NCBI GenBank assembly: GCA_030688545.1
Contig: JAUYHT010000008.1
Location: 120,001-152,000, forward strand
Length of the DNA stretch: 32,000 bases
Source: Candidatus Iainarchaeum sp.
Lineage (GTDB): Archaea; Iainarchaeota; Iainarchaeia; Iainarchaeales; VGJJ01
Reading direction: 5' to 3'
A program made the position numbers and the translations under genes. A model generated the notes under the pieces. That model saw only the letters and a program-made list of their open reading frames with translations, made no database searches and had not been told where the DNA came from. Below are positions 4,954-24,103 of the stretch, piece after piece; the stretch's first letter is position 1; each line of letters begins with the position of its first letter.

Positions 4954-5397
4954 TCACGCAATCGGGTTTATGGCAGTGATCCCCGGAATATTATTGAAAT
5001 CCTTTACGTTTTCAGTGTAAATGACATGGGTTTTATTTCGTAGTGCCGTTTGGGCTAAAACAACATCGTAATAGTCAAGACGCTGCTGGCCGCAAATCGC
5101 AACCGCTTCGCGAATGCTTATCGGGTCATCCACCAATACTATGGGAAACATCTCGCAAAAAAAGGAGATGAAATCGCCGACTTCTTGAGAATGGGTGCCT
5201 TTCTTTTGAATCATCACGCTACCAAATTCGCGCAAATTCTGCATTGCAATAAGAAAATGATCCTTATTCTCTTCCACTTCTCGCATAAACCGTTGGGCTT
5301 TGGCGTGCTTTTCCTTCTCGTTCGCATCCGCAAAATAAACGAGGATGTTGGTGTCAATTAGGGCTGTCCCGCTCATTCGAACACCTTTCAAAATCAT
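4954..5397 (-). CDS. vapC: PIN-domain ribonuclease toxin VapC
   Basis: N-terminal ALIDTNILVYF acidic PIN motif, later YYDVVLAQTA and a C-terminal TEN..DF. ATGA overlap with the upstream antitoxin gene. Confidence 0.75.
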   Translation of the reverse strand: MILKGVRMSGTALIDTNILVYFADANEKEKHAKAQRFMREVEENKDHFLIAMQNLREFGSVMIQKKGTHSQEVGDFISFFCEMFPIVLVDDPISIREAVAICGQQRLDYYDVVLAQTALRNKTHVIYTENVKDFNNIPGITAINPIA

Positions 5398-5718: not shown

Positions 5719-5800
5719 TCCTTTTCGAGGGCGGAGCGCCGAGAAAAAAGGGCCGCTGAAACCTACAGACGGGGAATTCCTTTCTTGGGATAAAACTGCT

Positions 5801-7171
5801 TCACCGGGTACGGCGCGATGGGGGCTTTTCGAAAAACCCTCCTTGCTTCAAAATTCGTTTCAAATCCATTTTCCCTTTTTCCTTCAACGCGTAATTCACC
5901 TGCACGATGGGCTTGTTGAGCTTAACAATGTTCCCCAAATCAATAGGAGTGCCGGAAACCACATAGTCACAATCCGCCTTATTCAACGTCTTCTCCAGTT
6001 CGCTGATCTGGATTTTGGAATAACCCAGCGCAGGAATCACTTCTTTCAGATTGGGATATTTGTCGAACGCTTTCCGAATATCCCCCACCAGGAAGGGTTT
6101 GGGGTCTAGGATGATGGCGCCCTTCTCTTTAGCGAAAACGGTTCCCGCTCCAAATGGCATACCCCCATGCGTCACGGTGGGACCATCTTCCACCACCACC
6201 ACTTTTTTCCCACGCAACCGAATCTTAGAATCGGTATGGAGTACAGAATCCGCATGGATGATTTTAGCCTTTGGATTATAATGCTGAATGTTCCGCTGGG
6301 TCACCTTGATTTGGGACGGGTGCGCGGCATTCTCCTTGTTGATCACAATAACGTCGGCCATGCGCAGGTTGGTTTCGCCGGGATGATAATGCATCTCGTC
6401 CCCCGCCCGCAGGGGGTCCACAATTACGAAAAGGAGATCCGGCTTGATGAACGAAAAATCATTGTTCCCCCCATCCCAGATGATGACATCGGCTTCCTTC
6501 TCGGCGCGGCGGAGAATTTTTTCATAGTTCACCCCCGCGTACACAATTAATCCCTCCCGGATGTGTTTCTCGTATTCCTCCCGCTCCTCAATGGTGGCGC
6601 GGTGGTGCTTGAGGTCCTTGAGCGTGGCGTATCGCTGCACTTCCTGCCGGGTGAGATTACCATATGGCATGGGGTGCCGGATGACCACGCCCCGACGCTT
6701 AGCCAGCTTGAGCAACCCCCCAATTTTCCTCGTGGTCTGGGATTTCCCCGAACCGGTGCGCACCGCGCAGATGGCGATAACAGGTTTGCTCGATCGCAAC
6801 ATCGTGGCATCCGGCCCCAATAGCCTGAAATTGGTTCCCGCCGCCAGGCATTGAGAGGCGCGATGCATCACATACTCATGCGACACATCCGAATACGCGA
6901 ACACCACTTCATTCACCTTGTATTCCTGAATGAGTTGAGTCAGCTTGTCCTCCGGGAAGATGGGAATCCCTTTAGGATAGAGCTTCCCGGCGAGCTTGGC
7001 GGGAAACTTCCTCCCCGCTATCCCTGGTATCTGGGTGGCCGTGAAACATACTACATCATAGAAAGGATTGTCCTTGTACACCTGATAGAAATCGAAGAAA
7101 TCTCGTCCAGCTGCACCCATGATGATGATGCGGCGTTTTACGAATTGAAGGGGAGTTGTGGGCCCGGCCAT
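5801..7171 (-). CDS. COG2403-family predicted GTPase / cyclic 2,3-diphosphoglycerate synthetase-family protein
   Basis: The family signature runs along the whole length: IMGAAGRDFFDF, FTATQIPGI, VVFAYSDVSHEYVMH, CAVRTGSGKSQTTRK, IRHPMPYG, TIEEREEYE, WDGGNND, HPGETNLRMADVIVINK. Confidence 0.7.
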   Translation of the reverse strand: MAGPTTPLQFVKRRIIIMGAAGRDFFDFYQVYKDNPFYDVVCFTATQIPGIAGRKFPAKLAGKLYPKGIPIFPEDKLTQLIQEYKVNEVVFAYSDVSHEYVMHRASQCLAAGTNFRLLGPDATMLRSSKPVIAICAVRTGSGKSQTTRKIGGLLKLAKRRGVVIRHPMPYGNLTRQEVQRYATLKDLKHHRATIEEREEYEKHIREGLIVYAGVNYEKILRRAEKEADVIIWDGGNNDFSFIKPDLLFVIVDPLRAGDEMHYHPGETNLRMADVIVINKENAAHPSQIKVTQRNIQHYNPKAKIIHADSVLHTDSKIRLRGKKVVVVEDGPTVTHGGMPFGAGTVFAKEKGAIILDPKPFLVGDIRKAFDKYPNLKEVIPALGYSKIQISELEKTLNKADCDYVVSGTPIDLGNIVKLNKPIVQVNYALKEKGKMDLKRILKQGGFFEKPPSRRTR

Positions 7172-12695: not shown

Positions 12696-13385
12696 TCATT
12701 TCCTCAATAATCTTTCCAATTTTTTCTTTTGTGTTTGCAGCAATCTTAGTTTTTCCCGCAGTAATTCGGGTGGCTCATTCCGGACCATCAAGTTGAATTC
12801 CTCCGCGAGATACAATTGGTTGGTATAAATATTGATATCAATAATGGTCTTCATCAAATTCTGAGAAATGTAATACTTTTTCAATCTGGAATAATATAAT
12901 TTTTGATTCGACTTACGAGCTATTGCCATCTGTCTAGAAATCACTTCTAATTCACTTTTCGCTTGTGCGGAATCATAGAGGTTATTCTCAATTTCGGTTG
13001 CCTTATGGATAGCGATAGATGGGTTTCCTCGGAAGGCATATGTCCATTTCAAATCCTTCATCTGTTGCATTTGAACGCCCATTTGCAATACCATATTATC
13101 CTGGAGCGATCCCGGATGCCTTTTCAACCAGGAAATAATCTTTGATATCCGCCGAATACGCAAGTCCGCATATTCCGACACCGCATTGGAGAAAGTAATT
13201 ACGTTAAGGAGATTTAACACTATCCCATCAATGGAACGGAAATTTTGTAATGGCACATGACTCATTTTGCCTAATGTTTGCTTTAACCCCCGTATGTCCT
13301 CAGATAAAGGTTTAAGCTGTTTCCTTAGCTCGATCCACTTGTCCCGGGGATTTCGATCTCTCCTCCTATTGGGCTTTTTAGGCAT
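12696..13385 (-). CDS. hypothetical basic, helical (coiled-coil-like) protein; AT-rich ORFan
   Basis: ATG at 13383-13385. Basic N-terminus MPKKPNRRRDRNPRDK and a K/R/E/L/Q-rich sequence. No recognisable domain. The composition switch falls exactly at the gene borders. Confidence 0.45.
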   Translation of the reverse strand: MPKKPNRRRDRNPRDKWIELRKQLKPLSEDIRGLKQTLGKMSHVPLQNFRSIDGIVLNLLNVITFSNAVSEYADLRIRRISKIISWLKRHPGSLQDNMVLQMGVQMQQMKDLKWTYAFRGNPSIAIHKATEIENNLYDSAQAKSELEVISRQMAIARKSNQKLYYSRLKKYYISQNLMKTIIDINIYTNQLYLAEEFNLMVRNEPPELLREKLRLLQTQKKKLERLLRK

Positions 13386-13428: not shown

Positions 13429-14391
13429 TCAATTACCCATTTCCCGCTGGAAACGTCTAAGTGCCTTTTTGGAATATTCCAAGTCTTTCCGAATAATATC
13501 CCGCGTGCGTCCTTTGAACCGCAGTCCGGTCAGACGGAGGATTTTCAGCTCATATGTGAGGCGTTGAATATCACGGGAGTAATAATTGATTCCAGAGGTA
13601 AAAAATCGGTCGATCAATTGGGGGGAAGGGGATAGGTTTTTCTGTAATCTGTCTTGATGCGCGTCCATAGCTTCTACGAATTTCCTTTTCCAATCAATAC
13701 CTTCAAGTGAATATCCTTCAAAAGCTTTAATCTCCGGTCCGATATTGAGCAATTGCTCAACTTTTCTCTTCTCTTTTCGCCATTCACTTTTCCAGGTCTC
13801 CAGATTCCGGATATATCGCTCTCGATATTTTGATGTCGCCCCGGTGAGGGAGGATGCGGATGTCAACCAATCCAATTCAATATCCAGCCGATTAATCTCA
13901 GCCTCAATATATTTCACGTAAGCCGAATGAAACCCCAAAAGAACGGGAACGGCTCCCTTCAATTCACTAATCGTTTGGATCCTGATTTTTCCCATTCTAT
14001 TGCGAGTCGTCCGGTATTCTCGGCGTTTTTCTTTTAGATCCGCTTCTCCCTCCGCCACTTTCCTTTGGTGCAATCGCCGAAGCGCCGCTAAACGATAGGT
14101 AATCGAACGATACCGCCGATTCCTTCCAAATAGATTGACCATCAACTGGGAAGATCCTCGGTAATGAGAGGATAATGCTTGTTTCACCATATCGGGGTAT
14201 ACGCGCTCAACTGCCGATGTCCCGAAATAGATTGGTCTACGCGGCTCGGTCACCATATCCGGACGCATGACTATTCCGCGACGCCACACATTTGCACGCT
14301 TGGCTTCCCGCTCTAAAAAAGCCAAATCCCGCTTGGCTGTCTTCTTGGGATACGATCGTCTTTCTCTAGACCCCATGTTCCCCAATACCAT
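13429..14391 (-). CDS. hypothetical basic, helical protein; AT-rich ORFan
   Basis: ATG at 14389-14391 (alternative at 14376). 320 aa, Arg/Lys-rich throughout. No recognisable domain. Confidence 0.45.
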   Translation of the reverse strand: MVLGNMGSRERRSYPKKTAKRDLAFLEREAKRANVWRRGIVMRPDMVTEPRRPIYFGTSAVERVYPDMVKQALSSHYRGSSQLMVNLFGRNRRYRSITYRLAALRRLHQRKVAEGEADLKEKRREYRTTRNRMGKIRIQTISELKGAVPVLLGFHSAYVKYIEAEINRLDIELDWLTSASSLTGATSKYRERYIRNLETWKSEWRKEKRKVEQLLNIGPEIKAFEGYSLEGIDWKRKFVEAMDAHQDRLQKNLSPSPQLIDRFFTSGINYYSRDIQRLTYELKILRLTGLRFKGRTRDIIRKDLEYSKKALRRFQREMGN

Positions 14392-14398
14392 CGCGCGA

Positions 14399-14407
14399 CT
14401 TTAAAGG
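14399..14407. promoter_or_regulatory. TATA-like box upstream of the Rossmannoid/nuclease pair
   Basis: CTTTAAAGG lies 22 nt upstream of ATG 14429. A second A/T box, CAATATAC (14421-14428), could serve the divergent gene that starts at 14391. Confidence 0.3.
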
Positions 14408-14428
14408 GTGTCACTCCCACCAATATAC

Positions 14429-14794
14429 ATGATCCTCATCGCCACCATTGGTTCGGGAAAAGGGACGTGGGGACATGTCCAGCGGGTGATGAAAGAGGGG
14501 GATTGGGAGAAAACGCTGCTCATCGGGAACGATTGGAGTAAGGAGCATTTCTCTTTCCCGGAGGGGATGGATGTAGAATGGATCGTGCTCCATGCGCAGG
14601 AACCATTTGAGCAGATCAAGGAGCAGATCGCCGCCCGGTTGGATAAAAAATCGTATGGGGTGTGCCTGTCCTCGGGCAGCGGGAAGGAACATTCAGCCCT
14701 CCTCGCAGCGCTGCTGGAAAAAAGGGTGAAATGGTCCATCGCCTACCTTTCAAAAAGCCAGCTGGCCATCTACGGAGGGGAGAAGGATGCTTGA
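14429..14794 (+). CDS. minimal Rossmannoid ligand-binding-like protein (CARF/SLOG-like), function unknown
   Basis: Starts with beta1 MILIATIGSGKGTW (hydrophobic strand plus Gly-rich loop). A second Gly-rich loop follows a hydrophobic strand, YGVCLSSGSGKEHSALLAALL. About 121 aa with alternating strand/helix character. The track start at 14408 is a GTG. Confidence 0.45.
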   Translation: MILIATIGSGKGTWGHVQRVMKEGDWEKTLLIGNDWSKEHFSFPEGMDVEWIVLHAQEPFEQIKEQIAARLDKKSYGVCLSSGSGKEHSALLAALLEKRVKWSIAYLSKSQLAIYGGEKDA

Positions 14795-15155
14795 ATGGGT
14801 GCTCGCCCTCCTGGTTCTCGTGCTCGCGGGAATCAGTTTCTTCCTCTACAAACGCGTGGAGGCGCTCAGCGCCTTTGCCAATGACCTGCAATTCGCCAAA
14901 CAGAGTCAATCCGTGAAATATGGGAAAATGAGCGAGCACTGGATTCCTCTGTCAGAAAAATTTCCTTACGAGAAAGAACGCTTCCGCTTCCTCGGAAACC
15001 CCATCGACGGCCTCGCATTCCTGGATGACAAAATCGTATTCTGCGAATTCAAAGCCAACACCAGCCGATTATCTTCCGTGCAGGACAATATCAAACGATT
15101 GGTGCAGGAGAAAAAGGTGGAGTGGTTGGAAATCCAGACGAAGGAAGGAGATTAG
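14787..15155 (+). CDS. membrane-anchored PD-(D/E)xK endonuclease related to archaeal Holliday junction resolvase (COG4741 / PF10107-like)
   Basis: N-terminal TM helix WVLALLVLVLAGISFFLY, then YGKMSEHWIPL...FPY....RFLGNPIDGLAF..DKIVFCEFKANTSRLSSVQ..IK. This gives the catalytic-type PID ... E-F-K arrangement. It has an 8-nt overlap (ATGCTTGA) with the upstream gene and an SD-like GGAGGGGAGAAGG. Confidence 0.6.
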   Translation: MLEWVLALLVLVLAGISFFLYKRVEALSAFANDLQFAKQSQSVKYGKMSEHWIPLSEKFPYEKERFRFLGNPIDGLAFLDDKIVFCEFKANTSRLSSVQDNIKRLVQEKKVEWLEIQTKEGD

Positions 15156-15397
15156 CCTCTCCTACGTATCCTTCGAAGAAGTCCGGCCCCCCATTTTCGC
15201 AATCCATATTCTTTTCTTTCCTTTTCGATATGTGAATGCACCAAAATAGAAGGGTCTTGAGGGATGCTTTCCCCTTTTTCTCTCAACCTAAACCTTTTCA
15301 TCAATTCGTATGCTTCCCCCCTCTCCAAGGGTGTCACCTTCAATTTTACATCGGGCCTCAGGTCTCCCTTTTTTTTTGGTTTTTTTTCATCCGGCAT
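15152..15397 (-). CDS. small basic hypothetical protein
   Basis: 81 aa, ATG at 15395-15397, 44 nt downstream of the pelota stop on the same strand. Lys/Arg-rich termini. No motif recognised. Confidence 0.35.
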   Translation of the reverse strand: MPDEKKPKKKGDLRPDVKLKVTPLERGEAYELMKRFRLREKGESIPQDPSILVHSHIEKERKEYGLRKWGAGLLRRIRRRG

Positions 15398-15441: not shown

Positions 15442-16494
15442 CTATGAGTGCTCCACCCGGTACCGCAAAATAGCCGCGATGCCCCCTAAACCATCCAATT
15501 GCTTGCCCGGGTCGGAGTCCGAATCCAGGATGGGGGAAGGGATTCCCATGCGCTTGGCGAGCGCGAGAATAATGTCTACTCGTTCCCGATTGGAATCGTA
15601 TAGGTTTTGGGAAACCAACACCCGGGAGGCCGCCCCCACCTCCACGGCGTATTCCACCTGCTTGAATCCATAGGTGGCCAACCCATCCTCTTTCCCCAAG
15701 TGGCGCATCACCTCATCCACCGCCTGGGCGTGCCGGGACATCGCGTATTCTCCCACGGCCTTGGCGATGGCCTCCGAGGCAATGGCTTCCTTCACCCCCG
15801 ACATCCCCGTGTCATGAGTGGGAATAGAGAGGAATTGTTTGTCGCCCTTAGGAAAGCGCTCTTGAAGGTACGCGAGCAAGGATTGTCGGGTGAAACCGGG
15901 CCCGGCAATGACCATTTGACCAACAGGGGAATGCTGCAGGATGTCCGCGATGGATGAAAAATAGTCATCCGGTTTGGACTGGGAAGCATATTGCTTTCCC
16001 GATCGGTAGGCTTTCACCCGCGCGGACTCTTTCACTCCTACCCCCGAAACCTCCACGATCACGGCTTCCTCGTCATCCAACACGACACAAACCAATTTGG
16101 CTTTCTTGCTATCCGCTTCTATCTGACGTAGGCGCTCGATTTCATGAGCGGGCAAACGTGTTTTTTTCACCGCGATGGGTTGACGCACCCCGAATACCAG
16201 GGAATGCATGGCATGCAATTCAACAAATTCTCCGGGTGAGCCGGATTCGATCGAGCCGGTGACACGGAGCTGGGACGAATGAGCATCCACCTCCACCTTA
16301 TTGGTTTTGAGGGAGAGGAACATCTTCAACCGGAAGGGTTTCTGCCCCACCTCCTTGGGCTTGATGAGGCGATCCGTCTCCCCACTCACTAAATCTCCCG
16401 GATGAATGAGCTGGGATACCAAACGTAATTCGTCCGAGGAATGGCACTCGACCTTGAAAGAAAACTCATCTGGCCGCAATGAAAGGATACGCAT
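15442..16494 (-). CDS. pelA: Pelota (aPelota/Dom34 homologue, mRNA surveillance and ribosome rescue)
   Basis: MRILSLRPDE...HPGDLVSGET..., about 350 aa with eRF1-like domains. I prefer the ATG at 16492-16494. The 46-codon upstream extension in the track is non-conserved and low-complexity. Confidence 0.8.
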   Translation of the reverse strand: MRILSLRPDEFSFKVECHSSDELRLVSQLIHPGDLVSGETDRLIKPKEVGQKPFRLKMFLSLKTNKVEVDAHSSQLRVTGSIESGSPGEFVELHAMHSLVFGVRQPIAVKKTRLPAHEIERLRQIEADSKKAKLVCVVLDDEEAVIVEVSGVGVKESARVKAYRSGKQYASQSKPDDYFSSIADILQHSPVGQMVIAGPGFTRQSLLAYLQERFPKGDKQFLSIPTHDTGMSGVKEAIASEAIAKAVGEYAMSRHAQAVDEVMRHLGKEDGLATYGFKQVEYAVEVGAASRVLVSQNLYDSNRERVDIILALAKRMGIPSPILDSDSDPGKQLDGLGGIAAILRYRVEHS

Positions 16495-16520
16495 ACATAG
16501 GTCGAAAGGGCGCAGGGGGC

Positions 16521-16528
16521 TTAAAAAA
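16521..16528. promoter_or_regulatory. shared A/T box between divergent pelota and the microprotein/ABCE1 unit
   Basis: TTAAAAAA lies exactly 27 nt from the pelota ATG (16494) and 27 nt from the + strand ATG (16555). Confidence 0.4.
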
Positions 16529-16554
16529 CGAGGGGAGGGTAGAATAAATACGAT

Positions 16555-16752
16555 ATGCGTCCCCTCACCAAGATAGGATGGTTCACCCTGGCAGTAGGAT
16601 GGGTTATCCTGGGGATCGTTTTCATCGCGCACAATGGGATGAATGACCCTATGGCCGCCCTCTTATGGATGTTAGGTCACCTCGTCTGGGGAGGCATTAT
16701 CCTGGGAGGGTTGCTGTTCATCCTCATGGCGGTCCTCTTCCTTTCCGCTTAA
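16555..16752 (+). CDS. 65-aa two-helix membrane microprotein (hypothetical)
   Basis: Two clear hydrophobic helices, WFTLAVGWVILGIVFIA and LVWGGIILGGLLFILMAVLFL. It fills the pelota-ABCE1 gap and ends 18 nt before the ABCE1 ATG. Confidence 0.4.
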   Translation: MRPLTKIGWFTLAVGWVILGIVFIAHNGMNDPMAALLWMLGHLVWGGIILGGLLFILMAVLFLSA

Positions 16753-21226: not shown

Positions 21227-24103
21227 ATGGAAGCCAAACTCCCCCCCAAAATGCCCTGGGTGGAAAAATACCGCCCTCACGCTCTCAAGGATGTAATCGG
21301 GCAACCTGAAATCGTTCCCCGACTTGAACGGTATGTGGCCACCCGGGATCTGCCGCACCTCATGTTCGCGGGGCACGCGGGAATAGGGAAGACATCAGCG
21401 GCCGTGGCATTGGCCAAAGAACTATTTGGTGAAGAGTGGGGGCAGAACTTCATGGAGCTCAACAGCTCGGACGACCGGGGCATTGATGTCGTAAGGGGCA
21501 CCATCAAGGATTTCGCGCGCACGCTAGCGTTCAATGCGGATTTCAAGATCATATTTTTAGATGAGTGCGACGCACTCACCGCGGATGCCCAACAGGCTTT
21601 GCGTCGAACGATGGAAAAATATTCCAGGACGGTTCGCTTTATTCTTTCGTGCGTAACACCCGAAACACGTATCGCAACACCTGAAGAAACTGAAATGACA
21701 ATAGGCGAATACTTTGAGCGATTTGAAGAAAAAAAAATAAAACATGTTTTCAATGTCCACGAAAAAAGGAGCAAAGCAAAAACTGATTTGGTCTTGGCAG
21801 CCTTAAAACAGAATCCAAAAATGAATGGAAAAAAAGTTATGGAAATACAAACGAATACTGGACGCACCCTCCACGTAACGGACGACCACCCCCTCTTCAC
21901 GAGTGAAGGATGGAAAAAAGTCAAGGACCTCCAAATGAAAGAAAAGATCGTTATATTTCCGGCACTGGAAACTACTTCTTATCCAACTGATATTCGACCA
22001 TTATTTGATATTGAAGAATTTGAGCGATTCCTCGAGAACCTGGAGGTGCGTCCACGTCTAAATCTCACCAACGCTACCCAATTCAGACAGTTAACCGCCA
22101 TGGACAAACGGAAAATGGTTGATAAAATACACGAATATTACTCCTTCATTTCATCGGGAAAAGGAGTTACGCCACGAGAGTTAAAACTTTTGTCATTTAT
22201 TCCAACCGATAAAAATATTTCCCGTGCCTCGTTAGCACAACATATGCAGCTATCGCGCATTCGTACCGTGCAACTACTACAAGTATTAGAATCCAAGGGG
22301 TTTGTCCGACGCACAATAGAAGGAAAAATCCATTCATTTTGCCGCACAAATGAAATCCCACGCAAAATAAGGAACTTTAGGGATATCCAAAATGAAATCA
22401 AAAAACAATTTGGAATTAGTGTTTCTTATACCGAAGTCCAAAAGCTGGCACGACGGGAAGTAGTGTTTGAAGGAAAAACAGCCGGAACCCTGAACGAATT
22501 AACAAAAAAAGAACTGTTAACCCTCCGTTGTGATGATGAAAAAACGTTTGCTCTCATCCGAGTCCTTGGATTTGTATTTGGTGACGGCCACATCATCCAT
22601 AACCACCAACGCATTTGGTTCAGTGGAAATACGGATGCGCTAGACGAAGTCCGCAACGATCTCAAAAAGCTGGGTTTCACTCCCAGCCCCACCCAGACCA
22701 AACAGATTCGCGGGAACATTGGAGGAAGACAATTCGATGGCGAAACGACATTTATGTTTCTTGATTCGCGTCCCCTGGGATACTTGCTTGCCTTTTTGGG
22801 GGCATCAACGGGAGATAAAGTAATCACGCCGTATTCCCTACCCTCTATAGTTAAAACAGGAAACCGTCTAATCAAGCGCGAATTCCTTCGTGCATTATTC
22901 GGATGCGAAGGTTATTCGCCGCGAATAACATACAAGAGTTTGGAAGCCATCACGTTGCGCATGCACAAGGATTTTATTCTCCGATCAAATATGCTCGCAT
23001 TTTTTGGCGATCTCCAAACCTTATTGAAGGAATTCGACGTTGACTCCTACTTAGGGATAAACTCAACATCCTACACACGAAAAGATGGACAAAAATCTGA
23101 AATCCACGAACTTATCATTACTCCCAATGAAGAAAACACCTATCGCTTCTTGAGTCGAGTTGGATACGCATTCGAAATAGCTAAAATGAACAAAGCACGA
23201 TTGGTGGGAGAATATTTACGCTATAAAAGTGCTAACCTAATGCGCCAAAAAAAGAAAGCGGAAGAAATCGTTGTATTATTAAAGGATGGATATACCAAAA
23301 GCGCCATCGCACGTATCGTTGATTGTTCAAGAGACTTCGTTGTTGGCCAATCTTTAGGAAAGCAAGTTCATTCACCGCACGACTTCTTATCTTATGAAAA
23401 ATGGAAAGATAAATACGGTTTCAAAGAAGGCCTTGTATTCAATGAAATCACATCCATGCACGAAATTGAGGTTCCGTTTGTCATGGATATCACATGCCAT
23501 AACGATCACAATTTTATCGCGAATGGTATTATGGCCCATAATTGCAATTTTTCATCTCGGATAATCGAACCCATCCAAAGCCGGTGTGTCGTGTTCCGAT
23601 TCCGCCCGCTGCGAAAGGTGGACCTGGAAAAGCAATTGCGATTAATCGCTGAAAAAGAGGGGGTGGTGCTGGAACCCAAAGCCATCGACGCCATAGAATA
23701 TGTGAGCGAGGGGGATATGCGCAAGGCCATCAACGTGCTGCAGGCGGCCGCGACGCTTGAAAAAAAGGTCACTGAAACCATCGTGTACAACGTGGCCAAC
23801 AAAGCGCAACCAAAAGAAGTGAAGGAAATGATCCATGCCGCCCTGAAGGGGAAATTCATGGACGCCCGGGAAAAACTGGATTACCTCATGCTAGAGAACG
23901 GGTTATCCGGGGAAGATATCATCAAACAGATCCACAAGGAAGTCCTGGATTGGGACGAAAACGAATTGGACTCCCAGACCAAAATTCGCCTTGTCGACCG
24001 AATTGGAGAATACGACTTCCGCCTCGTGGAAGGGGCCAATGAACGCATCCAGCTCGAAGCCTTGCTCGCCCAGATGGGCTTGGTTGCGAGTGAGAAGAAA
24101 TAA
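21227..24103 (+). CDS. rfcS: replication factor C small subunit, interrupted by one intein
   Basis: Exteins: PWVEKYRP, P-loop GHAGIGKTS, Walker [15 protein letters not shown] | [15 protein letters not shown]. The joined exteins come to about 327 aa, the normal RFC-S size. Confidence 0.9.
21650..23542 (+). mobile_element. 631-aa intein with a LAGLIDADG homing endonuclease and extra HTH modules
   Basis: Starts with Cys ([11 protein letters not shown] at 21650), block [21 protein letters not shown] motifs [10 protein letters not shown] and [11 protein letters not shown]. Blocks [23 protein letters not shown] are followed by the +1 Cys (TGC at 23543). It is markedly more AT-rich than the exteins. 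Confidence 0.9.

Follow-up and report, generated by a model that had tools for sequence, protein, structure and literature searches.

A predicted minimal stand-alone CARF-fold family of DPANN archaea and its operon-like pairing with a membrane-anchored COG4741 nuclease in Iainarchaeia

In a stretch of 32,000 nucleotides (nt) of Candidatus Iainarchaeum sp., contig JAUYHT010000008.1, hereafter the 32-kb window, two overlapping genes were analysed: gene 1, encoding a stand-alone protein with a predicted CARF fold, and gene 2, encoding a membrane-anchored nuclease of the COG4741/PF10107 family. The features of the locus are listed in Table 1. According to the open reading frames (ORFs), gene 1 extends from ATG to TGA and encodes a protein of 121 amino acids (aa), MILIATIGSGKGTW...YGVCLSSGSGKEHSALLAALL, and gene 2 extends from ATG to TAG. 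The two genes share 8 nt, ATGCTTGA (14787–14794), and a Shine–Dalgarno-like (SD-like) sequence, GGAGGGGAGAAGG, lies within the 3' end of gene 1, directly 5' of the ATG of gene 2; the coordinates, the overlap and the SD-like sequence agree with those of an earlier note made from the sequence alone. An SD-like motif at the equivalent place is present in only 5 of 34 related pairs, so GGAGGGGAGAAGG is a feature of the lineage of the window. The TATA-like hexamer TTTAAA is located about 27 nt 5' of the gene 1 ATG; this spacing fits a leaderless archaeal transcript, which favours the ATG at 14429 over an alternative GTG at 14408, and the hexamer is probably the promoter of a leaderless gene 1–gene 2 transcript. 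Relatives without gene 1 have an equivalent A/T-rich (TATA-like) box at about the same distance 5' of gene 2.

Table 1. Features of the gene 1–gene 2 locus; positions are those of the 32-kb window.
Feature	Position	Strand	Basis
TATA-like box TTTAAA, inferred promoter	14400..14405	+	sequence
Gene 1, predicted CARF-fold stand-alone protein, 121 aa	14429..14794	+	ORF, codon usage, family, AF2, Foldseek
Gene 1 motif 1, G10-K-G-T-W14, loop after strand 1, predicted ligand pocket	14456..14470	+	alignment A2
Gene 1 motif 2, S82-G-S-G-K-E-H88, loop after strand 4, predicted ligand pocket	14672..14692	+	alignment A2
SD-like GGAGGGGAGAAGG	14774..14786	+	sequence
Gene 2, COG4741/PF10107 membrane-anchored minimal PD-(D/E)xK nuclease, 122 aa	14787..15155	+	Pfam, homologues
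Gene 2 N-terminal transmembrane helix, residues 2–20, predicted N-out/C-in	14790..14846	+	hydropathy, K/R distribution
Gene 2 catalytic core, E50, D74 (PID), E87-x-K89 (EFK)	14934..15053	+	alignment A1

Both genes are genuine coding sequences with host-like codons. Read in its own frame, gene 1 has a codon-usage log-odds of 0.36 and gene 2 one of 0.45, while the other five frames score 0.11 or less and are mostly negative; the GC content at third codon positions (GC3) is 0.69 and 0.66, respectively, and 0.64–0.66 in the core genes of Elp3, Pelota and ABCE1. An antisense ORF of 112 aa (14401–14739, reverse strand) lies over gene 1, as do counterparts of 119–157 aa in many related genomes (e.g., loci L138, L146, L152 and L170). 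This ORF beats gene 1 in longest-ORF callers and is an annotation trap, and because of its poor codon-usage score it is probably a compositional artefact.

The product of gene 2 matches the Pfam family PF10107 (Endonuc_Holl, COG4741) over residues 38–117 with an E-value of 6e-14 and 52.6 bits, above the gathering score of 23.8. It is 100% identical to a protein from a metagenome-assembled genome (MAG) of 'Candidatus Diapherotrites archaeon', and 299 homologues of about 120 aa, 50–78% identical, were found, nearly all in Diapherotrites/Iainarchaeum MAGs. The protein carries the motifs RFLGNPIDG...CEFK, and in an alignment of 20 homologues (A1) the residues E50, D74, E87 and K89 are invariant, the E-D-ExK motif being intact. 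Residues 2–20 form a hydrophobic N-terminal helix with a mean Kyte–Doolittle value of 2.49; in 20/20 homologues no lysine or arginine (K/R) precedes this helix and one to three follow it. Accordingly, the nuclease domain should face the cytoplasm, where it could physically meet the soluble gene 1 protein. For COG4741, the motif E-(V/I)D-E(V/I)K and the same cytosolic orientation were predicted in 2005 (PMC1189080), and toxin, guard or salvage roles were speculated upon (PMC1189080; see also PMC3424549). By sequence comparison, gene 2 is an ordinary member of this known, uncharacterised family, sharing its motif, its N-terminal membrane helix and its predicted orientation without differences in the protein itself, as the earlier reading of a membrane-anchored PD-(D/E)xK nuclease had it. 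No member of the family with a solved structure was detectable by sequence, including a search of the gene 2 profile against PDB sequences, and an upstream CARF-fold gene of COG4741 members is not mentioned in the literature searched.

Gene 1 gave no significant match to the Pfam, NCBIfam and PADLOC libraries, and no genuine match, in particular no CARF protein, by phmmer against PDB sequences or with the family profile against PDB. Matches to Y_phosphatase2 (E 0.05) and to LAGLIDADG enzymes (E 0.03) were judged spurious. A word-indexed protein search retrieved only gene 1 itself, and the resulting picture of an orphan was overturned by an exhaustive HMMER scan, which yielded 135 representatives at 50% identity, nearly all of them stand-alone proteins of 115–120 aa. 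A profile of 85 representatives retrieves at least 1585 clusters at 90% identity, all annotated as 'hypothetical' and without Pfam domains, from Woesearchaeota, Pacearchaeota, Nanoarchaeia and Iainarchaeum. Longer homologues look like truncated chimeras with Orc1/Cdc6 or a histidine-kinase fragment. Judged from these profiles, gene 1 is a divergent member of a large, so far unnamed and unannotated DPANN family of about 118 aa.

The AlphaFold2 (AF2) model of gene 1, built with the family alignment, has a predicted local distance difference test score (pLDDT) of 95.1 and a predicted template modelling score (pTM) of 0.87. Its topology is b1a1b2a2b3a3b4a4b5b6, with strands (E) and helices (H) at E2-7, H11-23, E28-33, H35-40, E49-53, H60-68, E75-79, H85-97, E101-108 and E111-115, and strands b5 and b6 form a hairpin. 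The published CARF core is six-stranded and Rossmann-like and includes a beta-hairpin of strands 5 and 6 (PMC4012209), and the model has this core. Among the top 50 Foldseek matches in PDB, 41 are CARF proteins, with template modelling scores normalised to the query, TM(query), of 0.47–0.69 and a best E-value of 1e-4; they include Can2, Csm6, Cam1, Crn1 (Sso2081, Sis0455), Csa3, Csx1-Crn2, Cad1, Card1 and VC1899. The best match is the CARF domain of Can2 (8q3y, E 1e-4; 8bao was also matched), and the non-CARF matches, methylglyoxal synthase and dehydrogenases, have TM(query) of 0.42–0.49. A single-sequence model of low confidence gave the same CARF set. Csa3_N is the most frequent weak Pfam match in the gene 1 family (6/85, all sub-threshold, best E 0.041). 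The alternative folds SLOG/LOG and TIR are absent from the top 50 PDB matches, and SLOG appears weakly among viral models with TM(query) of at most 0.47. Of the two sensor folds considered in the earlier note, the Rossmannoid of CARF type is thus borne out by the model and its fold matches, and the SLOG/LOG reading falls away. At the level of the modelled fold, gene 1 belongs to the CARF superfamily, as a new minimal solo family outside every named CARF family. In the literature searched, which does not extend to the 2020 CARF classification, nothing was found that links CARF domains to these DPANN taxa or PF10107 to a CARF partner.

The conserved residues of the gene 1 family cluster in two loops; residue counts were taken from an alignment of 85 members (A2). 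Motif 1, L-(G/S)-x-G-K-G-(T/S)-W, follows strand 1, with G10 in 68/85, K11 in 68/85, G12 in 69/85, T/S13 in 78/85 and W14 in 76/85 sequences. Motif 2, N-x-x-S-G-x-G-K-E-H-(M)-A, follows strand 4; here G83, G85 and H88 are present in 85/85, S82 in 82/85, K86 in 61/85 and E87 in 62/85. Since both glycine-rich loops are conserved family motifs, they are not chance features of the window sequence. The CARF signature consists of conservation after strand 1 (a polar S/T) and after strand 4, [DN]x[ST]xxx[RK] (PMC4012209). The positions of the gene 1 motifs correspond to these strand-1 and strand-4 pocket loops, the strand-4 loop, with K86 in 61/85, being one residue longer than the signature; in the window, position 79 is C and not the N of the family.

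Recurrence of the pair was analysed by a metagenome scan seeded by an alignment of gene 1 and its two nearest homologues, the loci being searched in six frames. From the closest relatives of gene 2 the pair had seemed unique to this genome; the gene 1-seeded scan overturned this, and a locus retrieved with a gene 2 homologue (L214, 19-nt spacer) confirmed the result. A same-strand, adjacent gene 1→gene 2 pair was found in 35 other loci of Iainarchaeia, so the linkage expected from the window does exist in other genomes. The pair is also present in a GTDB genome of Ca. Iainarchaeum (L131). In 34 of the 37 related loci containing both genes, they are located on the same strand at a distance of at most 200 nt, with a median spacer of 16 nt, and the spacer is 23 nt or shorter in 19/37. 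The identity to the window copies in paired loci is 38–48% for gene 1 and 43–58% for gene 2, which indicates that the arrangement is old.

In Iainarchaeia, the pair is part of a block comprising a type-IV ATPase, a 267-aa gene, Elp3, in some loci a winged helix-turn-helix (wHTH) gene, gene 1, gene 2, Pelota on the opposite strand, and ABCE1. Among loci showing both Elp3 and Pelota, the interval between them contains wHTH, gene 1 and gene 2 in 12 loci, gene 1 and gene 2 (the pattern of the window) in seven, gene 2 alone in five, wHTH and gene 1 in three and gene 1 alone in one. The order wHTH–gene 1–gene 2 is kept even where Elp3 is inverted. Gene 1 was also found beside Pelota without gene 2 in eight loci (L133, L136, L137, L142, L143, L179, L180 and L210). 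Gene 1 and gene 2 are thus an ancestral, co-oriented, operon-like pair in Iainarchaeia (Diapherotrites), with short spacers or none, and their link is facultative, since each gene occurs without the other.

The wHTH gene commonly preceding the pair was found in about 30 loci and encodes about 100 aa, with matches to the HxlR winged-helix family (E 2e-5 and 3.5e-4); in 29 of the 30 loci containing both, no more than 200 nt separate it from gene 1. Nowhere in the window is an HxlR-type wHTH gene present. An unrelated HTH_24 gene (E 1.5e-7) is located 18–19 nt 5' of gene 1 in a different context (L135 and L139–L141), and a 151-aa protein with a weak HTH_20 signal (E 0.09) is encoded divergently from gene 1 in 24/109 neighbourhoods of Nanoarchaeota and likewise in L010–L012. 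Hence, a DNA-binding partner is at least as recurrent beside gene 1 as the nuclease, a wHTH gene alone being about as consistent a neighbour. In L135 and L139–L141 (about 5720–6340), an acylphosphatase-like 90-aa gene, recognised by eye, follows the gene 1 homologue, with no nuclease, and an ORF of 52–65 aa is also transcribed divergently from the gene 1 homologue in L010–L012 and Nanoarchaeota loci. In the window itself, the pair is flanked by three lineage-specific ORFs on the reverse strand (12696–13385, 13429–14391 and 15152–15397), which are basic, coiled-coil-like, without Pfam matches and with GC3 of 0.44–0.47 against about 0.65 in core genes. They stand where relatives have the HxlR-type gene, and at the position of the 320-aa ORF among them, L007 carries a counterpart with 25% identity.

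CARF domains are regarded as the hallmark of type III CRISPR signalling, in which they are the sensors, and, to our knowledge, the known CARF nucleases and CARF regulators are fusions. Can2/Card1, type III CRISPR ancillary effectors, are CARF domains fused to a PD-(D/E)xK nuclease; the top fold matches of gene 1 are Can2 CARF domains, its partner is also a PD-(D/E)xK nuclease, and both halves would be cytoplasmic. Here, however, the two halves are separate small ORFs with their own stop and start, no fused homologue was found, the nuclease is a membrane-anchored PF10107 protein, similarity at the sequence level is absent, a CRISPR or cyclase context is lacking and each gene occurs alone elsewhere. 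In the ligand-responsive transcription factor Csa3, a CARF domain is fused to a wHTH; it resembles gene 1 in fold (2wte, 6wxq) and in being its commonest weak Pfam match (Csa3_N), and in relatives a wHTH gene immediately precedes gene 1, but this gene is separate and absent from the window, the Pfam matches are far below threshold and there is no CRISPR association. Ring nucleases of the Crn1 type (Sso2081, Sis0455) are likewise stand-alone CARF proteins among the fold matches; they are, however, about 180 aa long, with an additional C-terminal element, and their genes accompany type III CRISPR systems, whereas gene 1 encodes about 118 aa, has other conserved motifs and occurs in housekeeping contexts. 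Cam1 (8t64–8t66) offers the likeness of a CARF sensing module at the membrane, but its membrane part is a pore-forming segment fused to CARF, and here the helix belongs to a separate nuclease. A precedent outside CRISPR is RtcR, a housekeeping RNA-repair regulator with a divergent CARF domain (PMC4012209), in which a CARF-type sensor controls a nucleic-acid pathway; the likeness considered here is the shared superfamily, RtcR being a large fused sigma-54 activator of bacteria.

The gene content of the window is of the housekeeping type. Pfam searches revealed a deaminase, a GDSL hydrolase, a metallo-beta-lactamase, a glyoxalase, a PIN protein, replication factor C (RFC) with an intein, Nre, ThrRS, glucose dehydrogenase and two HTH proteins; the contig annotations add the type-IV ATPase, Elp3, Pelota and ABCE1, and a CCA-adding enzyme upstream was assigned from the syntenic loci L003 and L004. 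A genome-collection scan with a strict two-motif degenerate DNA pattern gave 120 loci, all encoding a gene 1 homologue, and 109 neighbourhoods were analysed. They contain ribosomal protein L1 (39/109), L10 (34/109) and an M50 peptidase (34/109), and Orc1/Cdc6 in 15/109, usually directly downstream on the same strand; in Nanoarchaeota, gene 1 is often located beside the L1/L10/P1 ribosomal operon. Pfam scans of the ORFs and the annotations revealed no cas10, other cas genes, CD-NTase, cyclase or known defence protein in the window, in line with the earlier statement that no signal-generating enzyme is encoded there. PADLOC gave no significant match, gene 2 matching weakly (E 0.006) the nuclease part of a CARF–PD-(D/E)xK model. 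The pair is thus located in a conserved housekeeping block and not in a defence island, both in the window and in the related loci.

The reading preferred here, with a probability of about 0.45, is that gene 1 supplies the sensing part of an unfused circuit, with a wHTH regulator and/or the membrane nuclease as its output. By analogy with other CARF domains, the gene 1 protein would dimerise and bind a small nucleotide-type ligand, with a pocket made up of the GKGTW loop that follows strand 1 and the SGxGKEH loop that follows strand 4. It would serve as the sensor of a Csa3/Can2-like circuit with separate parts, acting on the neighbouring wHTH regulator in relatives and/or on the membrane nuclease; in the lineage of the window, the wHTH gene would have been lost, and gene 1 and gene 2 would be expressed from one promoter and translationally coupled. 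We infer that gene 1 may gate the gene 2 nuclease directly. Such a circuit would be CRISPR-independent and chromosomal, and also facultative, because each gene works alone in other lineages.

A number of observations weigh against this proposal. Gene 1 has no significant match to a curated CARF family of Pfam, NCBIfam or PADLOC, and a fusion ('Rosetta stone') search revealed no genuine fusion of gene 1 to any domain, gene 2 included. In the window, gene 1 departs from its own subfamily at two positions with a conservation of 90% or more (N55→H, R57→Q) and also at the C-terminus; judging by these substitutions, it may be drifting, with altered specificity or relaxed constraint, sister genomes having lost gene 1. 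The closest relatives examined of the gene 2 locus (L003, L004, L006, L007 and L009; gene 2 53–78% identical) contain neither gene 1 nor a remnant of it, their order being Elp3, no or one unrelated gene, gene 2, Pelota on the reverse strand, a small ORF of 65–73 aa (replaced by a 141-aa NUDIX gene in L009) and ABCE1. Gene 2 keeps every catalytic residue in these five loci, which indicates that the nuclease can do without gene 1. All combinations of wHTH, gene 1 and gene 2 exist between Elp3 and Pelota, gene 2 is missing from 119 of the 120 gene 1 loci of the genome-collection scan, mostly Nanoarchaeota, and about one third of the pairs have a spacer of 46–170 nt, which in several cases includes a TATA-like box 5' of gene 2. 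Finally, the boundary gene 1|gene 2 is tight in 34/37 loci, Elp3|wHTH in 22/22, wHTH|gene 1 in 29/30 and gene 2|Pelota in 14/30; since gene 1|gene 2 is no tighter than the two boundaries upstream, conserved synteny of compact genomes could explain much of the adjacency. Of the 'module' suggested in the earlier note, the recurrence and adjacency of the pair therefore stand; the link is facultative, and the adjacency is no tighter than boundaries between functionally unrelated genes.

These boundaries lead to the main rival, a quite plausible one, in which gene 1 and gene 2 are functionally unconnected and owe their proximity to the conserved compact block. Gene 1 would then be a housekeeping ligand-binding protein or enzyme, as in Nanoarchaeota, and gene 2 an independent membrane nuclease engaged, for example, in salvage of imported nucleic acids or policing of DNA entry, the salvage and guard roles having already been proposed for COG4741 (PMC1189080). 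Such independence agrees with the occurrence of each gene alone in many lineages, with the equal tightness of Elp3|wHTH and wHTH|gene 1, and with a separate TATA-like box of gene 2 wherever gene 1 is absent and in several long-spacer pairs. What synteny alone accounts for less well is the closeness of the two genes, with spacers of at most 23 nt in about half of the related pairs and an overlap in the window, and their same-strand order, which is never broken, though gene 2|Pelota is interrupted in 16/30 loci. The nearest structural relatives of gene 1, moreover, are sensors, several of them fused to PD-(D/E)xK nucleases.

The same structural relatives bear on the defence role envisaged in the earlier note, in which the pair would be a nucleotide-gated antiviral or abortive-infection system, a split Can2/Card1 answering a cyclic oligonucleotide alarm. 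Beyond the Can2 fold matches and the weak PADLOC match of gene 2 to the nuclease part of the CARF–PD-(D/E)xK model, the evidence runs the other way: the window lacks cas10, CD-NTase or another cyclase and has no significant PADLOC match, the locus belongs to a conserved housekeeping block instead of a variable island, the gene 1 family, unlike defence genes, is syntenic with ribosomal genes in a large share of the neighbourhoods analysed, and gene 2 persists without any sensor. The defence role therefore finds no support in the locus and is very unlikely. Most known solo CARF proteins are enzymes, and gene 1 might itself be one, acting on a cyclic or 2',3'-cyclic-phosphate nucleotide as a ring-nuclease-like or other phosphodiesterase, independently of gene 2. 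The stand-alone ring nucleases Crn1/Sso2081 and Sis0455 are among its fold matches, and the invariant-looking S82 and H88, together with the frequent K86 and E87, resemble a catalytic constellation in the alignment. Pure binding would, however, lead one to expect the same loop conservation, no gene for making cyclic oligoadenylate was seen in the window, and a protein of about 118 aa is without the extra C-terminal element of the 180-aa Crn1, which makes an enzyme quite unlikely. A broader form of the sensing circuit, considered unlikely, would make the whole family a CRISPR-independent housekeeping sensor of nucleotides or RNA ends in DPANN archaea. In Nanoarchaeota its genes neighbour the ribosomal stalk operon, and in Iainarchaeia those of Pelota and ABCE1, which act in ribosome rescue. 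In Iainarchaeia, the sensor might respond, as RtcR does, to a signal derived from translation or RNA damage and relay it to an unfused wHTH regulator and the membrane nuclease; such an arrangement could represent a modular state of the Csa3 and Can2 architectures that predates their fusion.

Other features of the window were noted as well. A PIN-domain (VapC-like) protein (4954–5397, reverse strand), possibly part of a toxin–antitoxin system, is the sole gene of the defence or addiction type noticed. The gene of the RFC small subunit (21227–24103, forward strand; Rep_fac_C, AAA, Intein_splicing, LAGLIDADG_3) is split by an intein, which carries a LAGLIDADG homing-endonuclease domain. Between Pelota and ABCE1, a hydrophobic 65-aa ORF without a Pfam match (16555–16752, forward strand) is matched in position by ORFs of 65–73 aa in the closest relatives. 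The Pelota ORF (15442–16632, reverse strand), read from a GTG at 16632, encodes 396 aa, and the gene call on an identical contig gives 350 aa with a start near 16494.

Accordingly, the family of gene 2 is known, and the new elements are a minimal solo CARF-fold family, its unusual housekeeping context and the unfused wHTH–CARF–nuclease arrangement. With at least 1585 clusters, the gene 1 family is large, represented by solo proteins of the predicted CARF fold, unannotated in the Pfam, NCBIfam and PADLOC libraries searched, and confined to genome-reduced DPANN archaea, where it occurs among translation and replication genes; one class of its loci forms the unfused wHTH–CARF–nuclease string. If the adjacency reflects synteny only, what remains is a newly annotated CARF-fold family. 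For COG4741, a nuclease family that has been uncharacterised for 20 years, gene 1 is the first candidate for a regulatory partner. Ligand binding by gene 1, if it occurs, would mean that the parts from which Csa3 and Can2 are built exist here as separate genes, and it would point to nucleotide-type signalling outside defence in organisms with minimal regulatory repertoires.

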